Source: an uncultured SAR86 cluster bacterium
Lineage (GTDB): Bacteria > Pseudomonadota > Gammaproteobacteria > Magnimaribacterales > D2472
DNA: 64,000 nucleotides
Assembly: GCA_902560315.1 (NCBI GenBank)
Contig: CACELG010000005.1
Span: 2,652 to 66,651, forward strand
Direction: 5' to 3'
The notes beneath the pieces are model-generated. The model did no database searches and was not told the DNA's origin. It saw only the letters and a list, made by a program, of their open reading frames with translations. The translations under genes and the position numbers were made by a program. This document shows, one piece after another, positions 46,770 to 55,355 of this stretch (its first letter is position 1; each line of letters starts with the position of its first letter).

Positions 46770-47749
46770 TTAATTAACTTTTTCGCTGTTTTTATTGCTA
46801 ATTCTAGTGAAGACGTATTCGACTTATTTGAACCTGCGATATCAAGCGCAACACCATGATCTACAGAAGTCCTGATAATTGGAACCCCTAAGGTAATATT
46901 TATTGAGTCGCCAAAACTAAGAGCTTTTAAGACTGGAAGAACTTGGTCATGATACATACCAAGATATGCATCAGTTTCTTTTAAAACTTTCATAGAAAAA
47001 GCAGTATCTGCAGAAATAGGGTTGGAAACATTTATGTTATTATTTTTTAATATTTTTATAGCAGGTCCAATCTCATTTATTTCTTCTAATCCAATCTTTC
47101 CATTTTCACCAGCATGAGGATTTAAACCAAGAATTTTTATATTAGGATTATTTATATTAAATTTTTGTTTAAGATCTTTGTTAAGAATTTTTACTTTATC
47201 AATGATAAGCTGCTTACTTATCTTTTTATGAACCTCTTTGAGGGGTATATGAGTTGTTGCTAATGCAACTTTTAATTTCTTTGAAGCAAGCATCATTAAG
47301 ACATCATCACTTTTAGTAATCTTTTGAATATATTCTGTATGCCCAGAGAATTTTTTGTTTATTGAAATAACATTTTCTTTACTAAGTGGGCCTGTAACAA
47401 GAGCAGTTTTCTTGTCTTTAATAGTTTCTTTTATCGCATAATTTAAGTTATTTAAGACGTATTCTCCATTTGATTTATATAGTTTACCTGGCGAAGTATT
47501 TCTACATTTTGTTAATTTTATGACCTGTAAGACACTCCTACGATTAGTTTTGCTCTCACATATCGAGTCTATTTCATCAATATTTATTTTTTTACTTAGT
47601 AATTTTGCTCTTTCTAAAAATAGATTTGGATCACCTATTGATACGATTGGTATTTTAAAATTTTCCCAAGATTGAGAACATGCAATTTTAATAATTAAAT
47701 CTGGACCAATACCAGCTGGCTCACCAGGGGAATAAATTACTTTTTTCAA
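46766..47749 (-). CDS. pdxA: 4-hydroxythreonine-4-phosphate dehydrogenase
   Basis: 327 aa. Contains GEPAGIGPD, GLNPHAGE and TSVDHGTA-like (TSVDHGVA) motifs. Confidence 0.9.
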   Translation of the reverse strand: MKKVIYSPGEPAGIGPDLIIKIACSQSWENFKIPIVSIGDPNLFLERAKLLSKKINIDEIDSICESKTNRRSVLQVIKLTKCRNTSPGKLYKSNGEYVLNNLNYAIKETIKDKKTALVTGPLSKENVISINKKFSGHTEYIQKITKSDDVLMMLASKKLKVALATTHIPLKEVHKKISKQLIIDKVKILNKDLKQKFNINNPNIKILGLNPHAGENGKIGLEEINEIGPAIKILKNNNINVSNPISADTAFSMKVLKETDAYLGMYHDQVLPVLKALSFGDSINITLGVPIIRTSVDHGVALDIAGSNKSNTSSLELAIKTAKKLIK

Positions 47750-48987
47750 TCTAAGTCTTTAAACTCAACAAAAGCTTCAGCCCGCATGGTTCTGAGAGTA
47801 TTTTCAAGCTCTTCGTCAAATTTTCTGTTGTATAAGATCCCGTAAGCTCTATCTTCAATAAGTTTATCTGTGAGTTCATAATTTCTTTTATCTAGCACTT
47901 CTAGAAAATGAAAACCAAATTGACTTTCAAATACCTCAGAAATTGTTCCTACTTCTGTAGCAAGCATAGTTTCTTCAAAGGTTGGAGCAAAAACGCCTAA
48001 TCCAACCCATCCTAAATCTCCACCTTGTTTTGCAGACCCAGGGTCTTGTGAGAATTCGTTAGCAAGCAAAGCAAAATCTTCTCCTTCCATCACTCTTTGT
48101 CGAATTTCAATTAGTTCTTTTTCAGTTTCTTCTGAAGTTCTTATCGCAGAAGGCATGAGAAGGATATGTCTTGAAAGCCATTGACTCTCATATTTAACAA
48201 AATCTCCTCTTTTATCTTCAATTTTTAAGATATGAAAACCAGAACCGCTCTCTAAGGGATCAGATATAAATCCTACTGGTTTTTTAGAAAGTGCCATTTC
48301 AAATAGCTCAGGCATATCCGCAGCTTGTCTCCATGACATAAGTCCACCACTAGTAGCATTAGAGCTTAGTGAATTTTCTTTTGCTAACTCAGAGAAATCA
48401 GAACCATCTTTAATTAAATTTATTATTTTTTCTGCAGTGCTAAGGTCTTTTACCAATATTTGCCTTACTGATAGTTCAGGCTCAAGAACATCTAAACTTT
48501 CATTAGTGGCTAAAAAAGCTTCAAACTCTTTTTCGGTGATTTCAATGTTTTGATTAACTCTACCTCTTTGTATTCTTTGAACACGCATTTCTTTTCGCAT
48601 CTGCTCACGGACTTCTTCATATGAATCTCCGTTATCTTCAATATAACTAATAAACTCTTCTAGGGACATTTGATTGTTAGATGCCAATCTAGTTATTGTT
48701 GTATTTAATTCGGCATCACTAATTTTAACTCCAAGCCTATCAGCTAGTTGCAGTTGGAGTTCTTCTATAATAAGTCTTTCATTTACTTGATCAATAAGAA
48801 TCTCACGAGGCGGAACTTGCATATTTTGACTTTGATATCCTTCCTCAAGACTTTCAATAGCTTTTTTGACTTGAGATTCCATAACCACACCATCATCAAC
48901 TATGATCGCGATTCTATCTAATACCTCAATTTTTGCAGTCAAATATGAAGGCGCTAAAAGTAAAATAGATATTAAAAATTTATTCAT
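47746..48987 (-). CDS. surA: Periplasmic chaperone / PPIase SurA
   Basis: 413 aa with a signal peptide, a SurA N-domain and parvulin-like domains (GFHILK, GFHFLE). Confidence 0.88.
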   Translation of the reverse strand: MNKFLISILLLAPSYLTAKIEVLDRIAIIVDDGVVMESQVKKAIESLEEGYQSQNMQVPPREILIDQVNERLIIEELQLQLADRLGVKISDAELNTTITRLASNNQMSLEEFISYIEDNGDSYEEVREQMRKEMRVQRIQRGRVNQNIEITEKEFEAFLATNESLDVLEPELSVRQILVKDLSTAEKIINLIKDGSDFSELAKENSLSSNATSGGLMSWRQAADMPELFEMALSKKPVGFISDPLESGSGFHILKIEDKRGDFVKYESQWLSRHILLMPSAIRTSEETEKELIEIRQRVMEGEDFALLANEFSQDPGSAKQGGDLGWVGLGVFAPTFEETMLATEVGTISEVFESQFGFHFLEVLDKRNYELTDKLIEDRAYGILYNRKFDEELENTLRTMRAEAFVEFKDLD

Positions 48988-48994
48988 AAATATA

Positions 48995-51415
48995 CTAATA
49001 ATTTAATATCGAATTATTCATGAATCTAGAAATTTTTTCAAAGGATGAATTTAATCCTTTTAATTCAAACTCAAAATTAATCCGGCTTTTGTTCTCAATT
49101 CTTATTATATTATCCCATGCTTCATTAAGATATGTGTAGGATTCAGGCTTGTAACCATCCAAGTATTTTGAAAAATTCCTATCCGAAGCAGTAATTCTAA
49201 ATACAAAACAACAGTTTTCATATCCAATACCAAGTGATGATTCTATATTTGAATTTGAAACGTCGTCTCTTTTAAGCCTAGCAATAATACTAAGATTATC
49301 TTTTAATCTTAAATCTGCAAAGAATTCAGAGTAATCAAGCTTGTTGTTAAAATCACCTGTCATTTTTGTATATCTTTTTGCATACCCAATTTTCCCATTT
49401 TCAAATTTTTGATTAATTGTGATACCTGCCATAGGAAACTTTTTCATCTCCTCAGAGTAACTTCCCATAGTCATTACCATTGTTTTCATATTAGGCATCC
49501 ATTTACCCATTATTACTATAGGCCCTTTGTCGTTATTCATCATTGACATCATATTCATATCCATAGAGTTAGACATCATCCCCATATCCATCACCATAGA
49601 GCTAGACATCATTTCGTTTTCCATGGATGCCATACCCACTCCATCAATAAAAACCTTTCTGTCATTAATATAAAATTTTTGTGAAGCTTTTAGAGATAAC
49701 TTATTCATGCCCATGTGACGATTAATATACTCAATACTTAAGGTATAAAAATTTTGATCACCTATTCTGTCCATACCAGTAAATCGTTCTGTATTAAAAA
49801 GTTGATTCATCATGCCTAACTTATAAGAATCAAAAATAGGATTCATATTTTGATCTTCATGTCCTACATAACCATAAAATAATCTAGGTTTTATAATATT
49901 TTGATTCATTCCATCTTTTTTTATGAAGAGGGTGCTTAGTTCTGCTTTGAAAGTAGGAACGAGTATTGAATTGGTCTTTGAATTAGTATTTTTAAGATCA
50001 TAGTTAATACCTTTCATCCCAATGGAAGTTTTCAGCTTATACCCATTTAAATTCGAAGAATTGGATATTTCTAAATCATAGAATAATCTCGTTCCTTCAA
50101 TAGGGTCGTTAATAAAAGTTTGAAATTTGTTGTTGCTTAAATGATTTCCAAAAAAACCATGAATACTATTTGCTTTAAAGTCAGTATAGTTTAGATATTC
50201 ACGTATAGAGATTCTTTTGAATTGTTTGAAATATTCTATGTCTATTGAGGGAGCTTTTTTATAACCATTTGTTAAAAGAGGGTTAAGTGATTGATAAGCT
50301 TCTTGAGATACCTTAATTTTAATATTTTTAAATACACTATTAAAATGTATATTCTGTCTTAGATTCTGCTCTCTCTGACTTCCTATTGAAGTTATATCAC
50401 CTGGAATATCTCTTAAAACTTGGCTATCCGAAGTTTTTGACCAATCAATATCTATCCAAAAATTTTCTTTTTTGCCATATGTATCTTTTATACCAAATGC
50501 CCACCTTGAGCTGGATTCATTGGGGTAATTATTTTGATACTCTTTATCTTTATCAAAATAAAAGAAATCTAAATTTCTTAAATTATTTGATTCACCATGA
50601 ATATTTCTAAAGTTTCCTTCCACTCCTGCTCCTCTATCAGATATATTTCGAAGAGCAATTGTCATATCAGACTTATTTGATGTAACTTGATAGTAAGGAA
50701 TCATAAAATCTAATCCATCAGATGAAAAAGATAACTGAGGCTCTAAAAAACCTGACATTCTGTCTTGTGAAGTTGCAAATGGAATATAAGGAAGTCTAAG
50801 TACTGTTCTATCAAAAGCTTTAATTTTTACTTTTTTTGCATAACCTCTCATGGTTTGGTCATTCAAAACAATGCTTTCAGCTATAAGTTCCCATCCATTT
50901 GATTTATCTGAACAGGAGGTCATTGAGACTTGATTGAAAATAATGTTTTCATCAATATTTCCTTTTAGAGAATCAAAATTGATTATTAAACCTCTGTTAT
51001 TAAGAAAAGTTTCACCATCTTCAAGTGCAATTGAAAGTTTATCTTTGTTAAAAGATCCAGAACTTGCCCTAAAAAAGTAGTCCTTCAAGAATAGATCACC
51101 ATTTTTTCTAAAATCTACCAAACCATTATCTTGGTCAACTCTTGCTTTTTCTGAAATAAGGATTCCATCCGGAAAGTCAATTTCAACATTGCCATTCAAT
51201 ATGAGCGCATTTTGTTCTGTTATTTCAAATTTATCTGACTTGATATCTAAGCTTTCCATGTCTTGCACTTTTCCAAGATAGGGCTTATAAGCTAGGCAGG
51301 TTGGGTTATTACTCGAATTTTTTTCAAGAATACCATCTTCTAGTAAATCTCCATTTATATAGCCTTGATGAAGAATGAAAGTCATTAAAAGAACTATTTT
51401 CTTGGCTCTTATCAT
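48995..51415 (-). CDS. lptD: LPS-assembly outer membrane protein LptD, carrying a Met-rich insertion
   Basis: 806 aa. It has N-terminal Cys40/Cys168 and C-terminal Cys735-Cys736 (ENCCFVF), plus an FNTERFTGMDRIGDQN motif. It lies upstream of surA-pdxA-rsmA. Confidence 0.9.
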   Translation of the reverse strand: MIRAKKIVLLMTFILHQGYINGDLLEDGILEKNSSNNPTCLAYKPYLGKVQDMESLDIKSDKFEITEQNALILNGNVEIDFPDGILISEKARVDQDNGLVDFRKNGDLFLKDYFFRASSGSFNKDKLSIALEDGETFLNNRGLIINFDSLKGNIDENIIFNQVSMTSCSDKSNGWELIAESIVLNDQTMRGYAKKVKIKAFDRTVLRLPYIPFATSQDRMSGFLEPQLSFSSDGLDFMIPYYQVTSNKSDMTIALRNISDRGAGVEGNFRNIHGESNNLRNLDFFYFDKDKEYQNNYPNESSSRWAFGIKDTYGKKENFWIDIDWSKTSDSQVLRDIPGDITSIGSQREQNLRQNIHFNSVFKNIKIKVSQEAYQSLNPLLTNGYKKAPSIDIEYFKQFKRISIREYLNYTDFKANSIHGFFGNHLSNNKFQTFINDPIEGTRLFYDLEISNSSNLNGYKLKTSIGMKGINYDLKNTNSKTNSILVPTFKAELSTLFIKKDGMNQNIIKPRLFYGYVGHEDQNMNPIFDSYKLGMMNQLFNTERFTGMDRIGDQNFYTLSIEYINRHMGMNKLSLKASQKFYINDRKVFIDGVGMASMENEMMSSSMVMDMGMMSNSMDMNMMSMMNNDKGPIVIMGKWMPNMKTMVMTMGSYSEEMKKFPMAGITINQKFENGKIGYAKRYTKMTGDFNNKLDYSEFFADLRLKDNLSIIARLKRDDVSNSNIESSLGIGYENCCFVFRITASDRNFSKYLDGYKPESYTYLNEAWDNIIRIENKSRINFEFELKGLNSSFEKISRFMNNSILNY
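49561..49612 (-). repeat. 33-nt-period direct repeat inside lptD
   Basis: CCATAGAGTTAGACATCAT (49561-49579) and CCATAGAGCTAGACATCAT (49594-49612) differ at 1 of 19 positions and are offset by exactly 11 codons. They encode MMSSSMVMDMG and MMSNSMDMNMM. Confidence 0.85.
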
Positions 51416-51467: not shown

Positions 51468-52070
51468 TTATTTGTTTGAATTTATGTATTCTTCTAACTG
51501 ATGTAAATGATCTTTTCCAAAGAATATTTGATCATCATAGAAGAATGTTGGAACACCAAAAGAGCCTCTTTTAACAGCATCGTCAGTATTTGATATTAAC
51601 TTATCTTTACAAGCTTGTGATAAAACAATTTCTATTATTGATTCAACATCAAGATCAGCTTCAGCTAGGACCTCTTTTAATACTTCTATATCCGAGATAT
51701 TTTTATCTCTTTCCCACATAGCACTAATAACACATTCAAAGTATTCTTTAAAGATTTTTAGTTCTTGTGCCGCTATCGCTCCTCTTTGAACCTGAATAGT
51801 AACTGGAGGAAAATGTGAATTAAATTTGTAATTAGTTAAGTTATGCTGCTTAACAAATCTATCAATTTCTATCATTTGATAGTTACTTTTATTTTTGCAG
51901 TCTGCAAATGCTATAAAAGGAGGCTGATTATTAGATAGTTTATGAATGCCACCTAATAAACAAGGAATATAATTAAATTTTACACCTGTTCTTTCTTCAA
52001 AATCAGGAATTAATTTATGAGCAAGATATGTATTTGGACTTGCAACATCAAAAATAAAGTCTACTTTCAT
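51468..52070 (-). CDS. DsbA-fold 2-hydroxychromene-2-carboxylate isomerase family protein
   Basis: Track ORF trimmed to Met11. Contains DVASPNTY and FGVPTFF motifs. Confidence 0.75.
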   Translation of the reverse strand: MKVDFIFDVASPNTYLAHKLIPDFEERTGVKFNYIPCLLGGIHKLSNNQPPFIAFADCKNKSNYQMIEIDRFVKQHNLTNYKFNSHFPPVTIQVQRGAIAAQELKIFKEYFECVISAMWERDKNISDIEVLKEVLAEADLDVESIIEIVLSQACKDKLISNTDDAVKRGSFGVPTFFYDDQIFFGKDHLHQLEEYINSNK

Positions 52071-52112
52071 TTCTATCAACAATTTTGTAAAGTAAAACAA
52101 TTAAACACTGAT

Positions 52113-53730: not shown

Positions 53731-54687
53731 TTGAAAGAAGAAGAAGCCATAAGTTTAAGCAAGCAATGTAACTTTAATGTTTTGAGAGCATTACCTTTAA
53801 AACTTGAGGCTAGCGGAAGAGAGTATTGGAGGATTATAAATAATCAAGATGAATCCTTTATTCTTTGTTATTTAGACCCAAAAAAAGGAAACCATTCAAA
53901 ATTTATTTCCATCTCAAATAATCTAAAGGATAGTAATATTTCTTGCGCAAATGTTATCTATCACAATGAAGATCTCGGAGTCACCATACAAGATGATCTG
54001 GGAGATAGAGACCTTCTTTCAATATTAAATGATGATAATAAAGATGATTTATTAAAAAATTCACTAGAAATACTATTACAAATTCAAAACTCAAAGCTTT
54101 TAAAAGTTGAGAGCTTTTCAAAAGAAGAACTAATTGAGCAAATGAATCTATTTAAAGATATTTTTTGCAAAAAGTTTTTGAATACTGATGCTGATGCTTC
54201 GATTGATATGCTCATCTCAGAAACAATTGATACTCTTATTGATCATCCTTGGGTAAATTGTCATTTTGATTTTGAAAGACGTAACCTAGTGCTTAACAAA
54301 GATAATGATTTAACAGTTATTGATTATCAAGATATGAAAGTAGGGCCAATAGGAATAGATTTAGCAGCAATATTAGTAGATCACTATTATGAAGCCAATA
54401 TTTCACATACTAAGACTTTATTAAATTACTATTCAAATTTAATGAAATTGGAATATTCAGAAGAAGAGCTTTATGAATTTCTTAGATGGGGATGTATCCA
54501 AAGAAATTTAAGAATACTTGGAACTTTAGCAAATTTATATATTGAAAATAATAGAAGTTTTAGATTAAAAGATTTACCAATGATATTAAATAATCTTATT
54601 GAAATGGTTCCAGATGAACATTCATCAAAGGAATTTATGAAAAAACATATTAAATCGATTTTAGACAAGAAAATTTCAGAATTATGA
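53731..54687 (+). CDS. amgK: Phosphotransferase-fold kinase, AmgK-like (anomeric MurNAc/GlcNAc kinase)
   Basis: 318 aa with a TTG start. It has a kinase catalytic loop (HFDFERRNLV) and IDYQD. It is coupled (ATGA) to a MurU-like nucleotidyltransferase. Confidence 0.65.
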   Translation: MKEEEAISLSKQCNFNVLRALPLKLEASGREYWRIINNQDESFILCYLDPKKGNHSKFISISNNLKDSNISCANVIYHNEDLGVTIQDDLGDRDLLSILNDDNKDDLLKNSLEILLQIQNSKLLKVESFSKEELIEQMNLFKDIFCKKFLNTDADASIDMLISETIDTLIDHPWVNCHFDFERRNLVLNKDNDLTVIDYQDMKVGPIGIDLAAILVDHYYEANISHTKTLLNYYSNLMKLEYSEEELYEFLRWGCIQRNLRILGTLANLYIENNRSFRLKDLPMILNNLIEMVPDEHSSKEFMKKHIKSILDKKISEL

Positions 54688-55355
54688 AAGCGATGATATT
54701 AGCAGCGGGTTATGGTAAAAGGTTAATGCCTTTAACCAAAGACACTCCGAAGCCATTGCTTAAGGTTGGAAATCAATCATTAATAAAGCGCAATATTAAT
54801 TATTTAATTAAAAATGGGTTTTCAGAAATCGTAATAAATGTTTCTCATCTTGGCGAACTTGTTCAACAACATGTAGAAGACAATTTTCCAGATAAAAATA
54901 TTTCTTTTTCTTATGAGGAAAAACCCCTAGGAACAGGAGGAGGTATTTTGAATGCTTTAAAGCTTCTTGGAAGCAAACCATTTTTAGTAATTAATGCAGA
55001 TATATATCATGATATTAATATTAAAAATTTACCAAAAGATATCAATGCAGCTCATCTCATAGGTGTTAAAAACCCAAGCCATAATCATCTTGGAGATTTT
55101 TCATTAAAAGAAAGAACTGTTGTTATAAATGAAAGCAATAATAATTTAACCTGGTGTGGTATATCAGTCATTAATCCTATAATCTTTGAAAAAAATACTT
55201 TTGAAAATGATAGTTTTAGTATTTGGAAGAGTGTCTTACCCCAATATATTAAAAAAGCGATGGTGACAGGACAAATGTCTTCTGAACCATGGGTTGATGT
55301 TGGAACTCTAGAACGTTTAAAACTTGCTAATACAGTCAATAATGAAGAGAATTAG
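54684..55355 (+). CDS. murU: Sugar-1-phosphate nucleotidyltransferase, MurU-like
   Basis: 223 aa with N-terminal AMILAAGYGKRLMPLTKDTPKPLL. Confidence 0.7.
   Translation: MKAMILAAGYGKRLMPLTKDTPKPLLKVGNQSLIKRNINYLIKNGFSEIVINVSHLGELVQQHVEDNFPDKNISFSYEEKPLGTGGGILNALKLLGSKPFLVINADIYHDINIKNLPKDINAAHLIGVKNPSHNHLGDFSLKERTVVINESNNNLTWCGISVINPIIFEKNTFENDSFSIWKSVLPQYIKKAMVTGQMSSEPWVDVGTLERLKLANTVNNEEN

Follow-up and report, generated by a model that had tools for sequence, protein, structure and literature searches.

The lptD gene considered here lies in a 64,000-nucleotide stretch of an uncultured SAR86 cluster bacterium (contig CACELG010000005.1, positions 2,652 to 66,651, assembly GCA_902560315.1; this whole stretch is called the window below, and positions are given in its coordinates). 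It encodes a canonical LptD, the lipopolysaccharide (LPS) insertase of the outer membrane, which carries an unprecedented, lineage-conserved methionine (Met)-rich module. The module is specific to the LptD of one SAR86 subclade and is maintained there by selection. It has two parts, a low-complexity tract in extracellular loop L9 and about 15 surrounding positions occupied by Met, and the two were gained and lost together. L9 grows and shrinks by in-frame repeat slippage, and a 33-nt duplication in the window is one such event. As to function, the reading ranked first, with a probability of roughly 0.35, is that the module would serve as a Cu(I)/Ag(I)-binding thioether patch.

The 806-residue protein is encoded by a minus-strand open reading frame (ORF) at 48995-51415. 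Mapping of this ORF confirmed that residues 595-662 (49430-49633) contain 23 Met in 68 residues, as claimed in an earlier sequence-only reading of this DNA; the remainder of the protein is 2.4% Met. The binomial probability of such a stretch is 2.7e-20, or ~6e-16 when corrected over all 68-residue windows in the long ORFs of the window. The densest 30-residue stretch has 14 Met, whereas no other ORF of the window has more than 5. At the DNA level, 49561-49579 and 49594-49612 are identical at 18 of 19 bases and the full 33-nt units at 27 of 33, in agreement with the duplication with one mismatch in 19 that had been read earlier. Tandem Repeats Finder reported the same element (period 33, 1.9 copies, 86% matches, 49550-49612), and its identity was reached in 0 of 500 codon shuffles.

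The Met enrichment is confined to LptD and does not stem from an assembly error. Independent ENA, JGI and Tara assemblies yielded at least 13 proteins, complete or partial, with the same tract, differing only by point changes or a +3 aa variant, and the single-cell genome AG-325-P20 (L009) also carries it; between species, indels in the tract are in frame without exception. A frameshift artefact and an assembly artefact, the latter named for checking in the earlier reading, are ruled out by these observations. A proteome-wide Met bias is ruled out as well, since window ORFs of at least 150 residues have a mean of 2.5% Met and Met is not enriched in the SurA and PdxA of the clade, the products of adjacent genes. 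The opposite strand of the tract holds only chance ORFs of 45-48 residues. A match to the small nucleolar RNA snoR28 (Rfam) at 49534-49586 on the minus strand scored 29.5 bits, with a gathering score of 45, and was judged a chance match to repetitive sequence.

The protein is LptD by Pfam, PDB sequence and Foldseek matches, which bears out the earlier assignment. The Pfam family PF04453 (LptD) was matched with an E value of 7.5e-28 (98 bits, cut-off 22), and solved LptD chains in the PDB with E values of 3e-42 to 1e-9 (2e-47 in a profile search). The top 38 Foldseek matches of the structural model were all LptD (E down to 9e-50, template modelling score 0.65-0.8). The AlphaFold2 (AF2) model calculated with 139 diverse sequences had a predicted local distance difference test score (pLDDT) of 87.1 and a predicted template modelling score of 0.81, and DSSP resolved it into a jellyroll and 26 barrel strands. 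The strand map of record is that of this run; an earlier run with 24 clade sequences was weak (pLDDT 57.7) and gave an identical strand map. C168, C735 and C736 are invariant in the 139-sequence alignment and C40 is conserved in at least 90%; these are the two N-terminal and the paired C-terminal Cys that would make the interdomain disulfides of LptD. The motif quoted in the earlier reading, FNTERFTGMDRIGDQN, is located in loop L8, so the cysteines and the motif noted in the flanks of the tract are all present.

The positions of the gene, the duplication and the parts of the module are as follows.

48995-51415, minus strand: lptD ORF (806 residues plus stop), with signal peptide, N-terminal beta-jellyroll at about residues 57-214 and 26-strand barrel at residues 227-785.
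49208-49213, minus strand: Cys735-Cys736 in the periplasmic turn between beta24 and beta25; the pair fixes the membrane side of each loop.
49430-49453, minus strand: short loop L10 and start of beta20 (residues 655-662), with M657 and conserved M662.
49454-49528, minus strand: beta18 (630-639), 5-residue periplasmic turn T9 (640-644) and beta19 (645-654), a canonical hairpin with Met substitutions.
49529-49669, minus strand: extracellular loop L9 (residues 583-629, 47 aa) between beta17 and beta18 in the AF2 strand map, acidic and rich in Met, Ser and Asn.
49550-49612, minus strand: 33-nt (11-codon) tandem duplication within L9, encoding MMSSSMVMDMG / MMSNSMDMNMM.
49556-49639, minus strand: L9 core predicted by AF2 to be disordered (residues 593-620, pLDDT <50), followed by a short predicted helix at residues 620-626 (MNMMSMM).
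49706-49714, minus strand: periplasmic turn T8 (residues 568-570, HMGM), with clade-specific M568 and M570.
49757-49864, minus strand: loop L8 (residues 518-553), long and conserved, with clade-specific M535, M536 and M548.

L9 is extracellular, given that beta1 comes in from the periplasmic side and that the Cys-Cys pair lies in the periplasmic beta24/beta25 turn. The low-complexity part of the tract is therefore in an extracellular loop, where the sequence-only reading had thought it might sit. The description of the whole tract as a 68-residue insertion did not hold. Comparison with other LptDs by alignment and in the AF2 model mapped the extra sequence to about residues 583-629 only, as an expanded L9, whereas residues 630-662 are the ordinary beta18-turn-beta19-L10 with Met substitutions. 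The latter align one to one with the hairpin of Met-free SAR86 LptDs (GPIASSFAWNPSKEIKFNSYVNYS compared with GPIVIMGKWMPNMKTMVMTMGSYS).

Within the hairpin, Met is conserved in the clade at 634, 636, 640, 643, 646, 648 and 650, and the Met-free relatives have Ser, Thr, Asn or Lys at these positions. With the modelled 5-residue turn, residues 634, 636 and 638 are paired with 650, 648 and 646 on one face. The opposite face is made up of I633, I635, G637 and W639 with T645, V647, T649, G651 and Y653, the pattern expected of lipid-facing residues. Since the pairing puts Met on one face and lipid-type residues on the other, the Met side of beta18/beta19 probably faces the barrel lumen. Further clade-specific Met are found in periplasmic turns T7 (503), T8 (568, 570) and T9 (643), in L8 (535, 536, 548) and in L10/L11 (662, 685). 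In all, about 15 non-repeat positions around L9 are fixed as Met, with 70-100% conservation in the clade.

Deletion of L9 from Escherichia coli LptD leaves growth and minimum inhibitory concentrations of antibiotics like those of the wild type; the loop is accessible to antibodies and, with L11, covers the essential L10 (PMC6592684). Extracellular loops (EL) 6 to 9 form the static back of the LptDE complex, away from the beta1/beta26 gate (PMC12685063). Dispensability, exposure and the static-back position together place the Met-rich insert at an exposed position that tolerates change and is far from where LPS leaves the barrel.

The distribution of the module was followed in relatives of the window LptD. 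All of the 120 closest cluster representatives (57-98% identity) are Met-rich at the same site, and among the best 150 matches in a search of 1.84 billion cluster-50 representatives the Met-rich members belong to the clade only. In the region aligned to residues 575-680, the LptDs of 37 species-level genomes, which form one monophyletic SAR86 subclade including SAR86A, have 83-114 aa with 12-28 Met. The corresponding region has 74-76 aa with 0-3 Met in other SAR86 subclades (28-35% identity, including SAR86E) and 79-82 aa with 0-2 Met in Marinomonas. L9 itself has a median of 18 aa (range 9-53) with 0-1 Met in 123 diverse non-clade LptDs and, in the same alignment, a median of 42.5 aa with 13 Met in the Met-rich clade. 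A Met-rich L9 as a common feature of LptD is thus ruled out, and the rarity of comparable tracts proposed in the earlier reading is upheld. A full-text literature search gave no prior description of a Met-rich LptD or of a Met tract in the SAR86 outer membrane, in line with the same reading.

Three genomes nested in the Met-rich clade, SCGC AAA168-P09 (L029), WB7_3xC_029 (L031) and P_MB137_1 (L049), have 3-5 Met in the 575-680 region; their L9 is short with 2-3 Met, and most of the flanking Met are gone. This pattern reads as secondary loss of both L9 and the flanking Met. The L9 Met count and the flanking Met count are correlated (Spearman 0.76, n=40, not corrected for phylogeny).

The tract is not young. 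It is common to the subclade down to ~48% LptD identity, by which a recent private duplication is ruled out, and the particular duplication of the window is already present in relatives at 95-98% identity; the claim that the tract was recently expanded is thus overturned. By a scan with one genome for each species, the window was assigned to the SAR86 cluster; the nearest genome, the single-cell assembly AG-325-P20, has an LptD 95% identical to that of the window. Independent assemblies of the species-level cluster show almost no variation in the tract apart from the one +3 aa variant, and the duplication in the window is therefore not a fresh event. The search of related genomes suggested earlier did map presence and absence, with 37 carriers; repeat units differ between lineages.

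Two further observations were made among the relatives. A metagenome protein of a sister lineage, P0150 (~40% identity), has an ordinary L9 and carries a small Met-rich insert, NNMMMSGNMLMG, in another extracellular loop, L6; its turn T8 is Met-rich (LMSMNMSMDKLM, 'LMSMNMSM'). The two stretches, at residues 434-446 and 579-590, align to residues 423-430 and 560-575 of the window LptD. From P0150, the Met enrichment of LptD may have had more than one site of origin. Separately, SAR86-type lptD genes or fragments were found on two NYXO01 contigs labelled 'Methanobacteriota archaeon ARS96' (L008, L036) and in a metagenome-assembled genome labelled 'uncultured Clavibacter sp.' (L074), with lptD identities of 64% in the archaeon-labelled bins and 36% in the Clavibacter-labelled bin. 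These contigs are almost certainly mis-binned.

What has been kept over this divergence is Met content. In the variable part of L9 of the 37 species, Met makes up 38.7%, followed by Ser (15.4%), Asn (14.6%), Asp (7.6%) and Gly (5.2%). Ile (2.5%), Leu (1.6%) and Val (0.3%), residues whose codons can be reached from ATG by one mutation, are scarce, Cys is absent, His is present 0-2 times, and there is almost no Lys or Arg. Met accounts for 32-50% at every length (16-47 aa) and with every repeat unit (MMSNSMNMG, MGMSS, MNSMNQ and others).

A neutral low-complexity expansion, in which an ATG-rich seed slipped in a permissive loop and acquired no function, is hard to reconcile with this and is judged very improbable. 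It would draw on the tolerance of E. coli L9 to deletion, the wide range of L9 length across LptDs, the tandem DNA repeats, and the three lineages that lost the tract and kept LptD. Different repeat units in different lineages, however, all hold ~39% Met. In a genome of 32% GC, neutral decay of ATG to ATA or ATT would be expected, and AT-biased mutation of this kind should have eroded the tract, yet Ile stands at the low level given above. The non-repeat positions around L9, moreover, were independently fixed as Met.

The module is also costly, because SAR86A is reported to be without Met biosynthesis (Dupont et al., PMC3358033). This LptD contains more than 40 Met, kept across deep divergence; in a lineage reported not to make Met, this points to a real selective benefit at the cell surface.

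One benefit of a changing loop could be surface variation, with L9 as a hypervariable decoy in which repeat slippage allows escape from phages, bacteriocins or grazers and Met is incidental. Siphophages and phage DEV do use LptD as their receptor (PDB 9rpt, 9rqi; PMC12685063, PMC12892993), the antibody-accessible LptD loops are the most variable ones (PMC6592684), and L9 differs between species in length and units, with the +3 aa variant even within a population. The known phage contacts are, however, on EL3-5 and EL11 and not on EL9 (PMC12685063), and the tract is nearly invariant in the species-level cluster. Incidental Met would leave unexplained why the Met fraction stayed constant over deep divergence, why strands and periplasmic turns hold fixed Met, and why a Met auxotroph bears the cost. 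This explanation is considered unlikely.

The arrangement of the Met residues is what suggests a metal. L9 of the window contains 6 MxM, 5 MxxM and 3 MxMxxM motifs, with 7 Asp/Glu compared with 2 Lys/Arg and no Cys. Similar motif counts are found in the 37 relatives, and MHMDM or SMHSDMM motifs occur in many clade members. Dense arrays of this kind do lie in an extracytoplasmic compartment here, as placed by the strand map and the Cys-Cys anchor. In the reading ranked first, these arrays, which lack Cys, have little His and are bordered by Asp, Asn and Ser, would provide a thioether-rich patch that binds soft metals, namely Cu(I) and, by extension, Ag(I). The patch would lie where the translocon opens to the surface and along its inner wall. 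There it would trap Cu(I) at a machine that is essential and depends on disulfides, thereby buffering or diverting the metal, and the remainder of LptD would keep its normal role in LPS insertion. An MxMxxM motif made of Met alone has been described in Ctr1 as selective for Cu(I)/Ag(I) (PMC9117721), and the outer-membrane barrel PcoB needs its Met/His-rich disordered regions for copper resistance (PMC12509749). The position of the P0150 insert, in L6 and not in L9, argues for chemistry rather than exact geometry. To our knowledge, nearly all characterised extracytoplasmic bacterial tracts rich in Met belong to copper proteins.

Several points weigh against this Cu(I)/Ag(I) reading. The likeness of the tract to copper proteins is one of composition only: it had no Pfam match at E values up to 10, and its best PDB sequence match (E 0.23) was to an unrelated protein. 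No copper-homeostasis gene is present among the ten neighbours scanned within ~8 kb of lptD, which include DSBA-like, SDR, APH, NTP-transferase, RsmA, ApaH-like, CCA/poly(A) polymerase-like and PepSY_TM proteins; linkage to copper genes is not required for a Cu(I) function. Few LptD copies are present per cell, so the patch could be no bulk sink, and free copper in seawater is extremely low. A metal trap exposed purely at the surface does not account for the Met of the turns and lumen wall, which could instead pack against LptE or L9 itself. Their placement in the lumen, furthermore, comes from register and amphipathic pattern rather than from coordinates.

The same turn and wall residues could belong to a continuous thioether track, leading from turns T7-T9 through the lumen face of beta18/beta19 and L8 to L9, that would act as a relay or conduit for Cu(I) in export or uptake. 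The layout would be akin to the Met-rich ectodomain and Met-lined pore of Ctr1, or to the Met relay of CusA. A conduit is given a very low probability; if real, it would give an ocean bacterium with a streamlined genome a copper route through the outer membrane that has gone unrecognised.

Thioethers also react with oxidants, and the resemblance to known oxidant sinks is, like that to copper sites, one of composition and motif. Surface and lumen Met might form a sacrificial shield that scavenges H2O2, singlet oxygen and reactive halogen species in sunlit water, protecting the essential buried L8 and L10, the disulfides and the LptD lumen. The periplasmic MrpX, a sink paired with a methionine sulfoxide reductase (Msr), is a precedent (PMC4436054), and L9 with L11 covers the essential L10 in E. 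coli (PMC6592684). SAR86 is a surface-ocean lineage, most single-cell genomes of the clade come from surface collections, and a shield would fit with the conservation of Met content and not of L9 sequence. L9 is extracellular, however, with no known Msr repair there, and would be a single-use sink. No msr gene, msrP and msrQ included, lies among the same neighbours within ~8 kb of lptD. The proximity to and co-encoding with an Msr that mark MrpX-type sinks were thus not seen here, and only the turn and lumen-wall Met would be accessible from the periplasmic side. Each cell would hold very few such thioethers, and the acidic, Cys-free character, the motif-like spacing and the occasional conserved His would be left unexplained. 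A shield is accordingly held as a doubtful alternative.

A structural role was weighed at a comparable, low level. The flexible L9 might fold over or into the back lobe as a cap or plug and pack on the Met-lined beta18/beta19, on L8 and on LptE. Such packing might seal or stabilise the 26-strand barrel where, for instance, LptE is divergent or reduced or LPS is short. Met side chains can serve as flexible hydrophobic packing material, and do so in the M domain of SRP54. The joint gain and loss of the Met in L9 with those of the lumen face, L8 and the turns, and the short helix predicted at residues 620-626, are both in keeping with such packing, and in E. coli L8 touches LptE in the lumen (PMC6592684). 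The AF2 model, however, gives L9 a pLDDT <50 with no docked conformation, and the free variation of its length (16-47 aa) and repeat register is a poor fit to a defined interface. The Met in periplasmic turns T7-T9 lie beyond the reach of an extracellular loop, and the Met-rich insert of P0150 is in a different loop.

The setting of the gene is conventional. The order lptD-surA-pdxA-rsmA-apaH is the usual gammaproteobacterial neighbourhood, and the 64-kb window holds no lptE, the gene of the obligate plug partner of LptD. The gene that served as Met control is listed first, and two neighbours upstream of lptD follow.

47746-48987, minus strand: surA, downstream of lptD in the conserved lptD-surA-pdxA-rsmA-apaH order; Met control gene.
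51471-52100, minus strand: DSBA-like thioredoxin-fold protein (PF01323, E 6e-29), directly upstream of lptD, without an obvious signal peptide.
53731-55352, plus strand: AmgK/MurU-like pair (APH phosphotransferase and nucleotidyltransferase), ~2.3 kb upstream of lptD.

A short-chain dehydrogenase gene sits between lptD and the AmgK/MurU-like pair. A comparable arrangement occurs in Pseudomonas.

LptD is essential, surface-exposed and a target of drugs and phages, with outer loops commonly regarded as shields that the protein can do without. One ocean lineage, abundant, for the most part uncultured and reportedly auxotrophic for Met, has kept a Met-laden version of the protein, and the candidate benefits are copper(I) capture, oxidant protection and barrel sealing. 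The pattern of presence, absence and loss within SAR86 amounts to a natural comparative experiment that could be linked to copper or light regimes of the ocean.

Among known systems, the closest is LptD itself (PF04453; 4q35, 4rhb, 5iv9, 5iva, 8h1s, 9kn3). The SAR86 protein shares with it full-length homology, the jellyroll and 26-strand barrel, four conserved Cys, a long L8 with the RFxGxDRIGD motif and the lptD-surA-pdxA synteny. It differs in its L9 of 47 aa, ~38% of it Met, and in the ~15 further positions fixed as Met; solved or representative LptDs have at most 1 Met in L9. With MrpX (PMC4436054) the tract has in common an extracytoplasmic location, low complexity, Met-richness and a usefulness that resides in thioether groups. 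MrpX, however, is small, soluble and periplasmic and is regulated together with its reductase, whereas the SAR86 tract belongs as a loop to a membrane machine and is for the most part extracellular, and no reductase gene lies close to it.

PcoB/CopB (PMC12509749) also combine an outer-membrane beta-barrel with a poorly conserved, length-tolerant, disordered Met-rich region, and its composition (Met, Asp, Ser, Gly and some His) is similar to that of the SAR86 tract. The PcoB region is N-terminal, periplasmic, reliant on His and encoded in a copper operon. The SAR86 tract, in contrast, contains almost no His and forms an internal, extracellular loop in an essential barrel unrelated to PcoB; no copper genes lie nearby, and the tract has no homology to PcoB. 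Ctr1 (PMC9117721) is a eukaryotic trimeric helical channel with no homology to SAR86 LptD. It nevertheless has extracellular, disordered, Met-only motifs, in its case selective for Cu(I)/Ag(I), and shares with SAR86 LptD a layout in which a Met-rich ectodomain stands beside Met lining a transmembrane passage, the lining in SAR86 being suggested by the sequence pattern.

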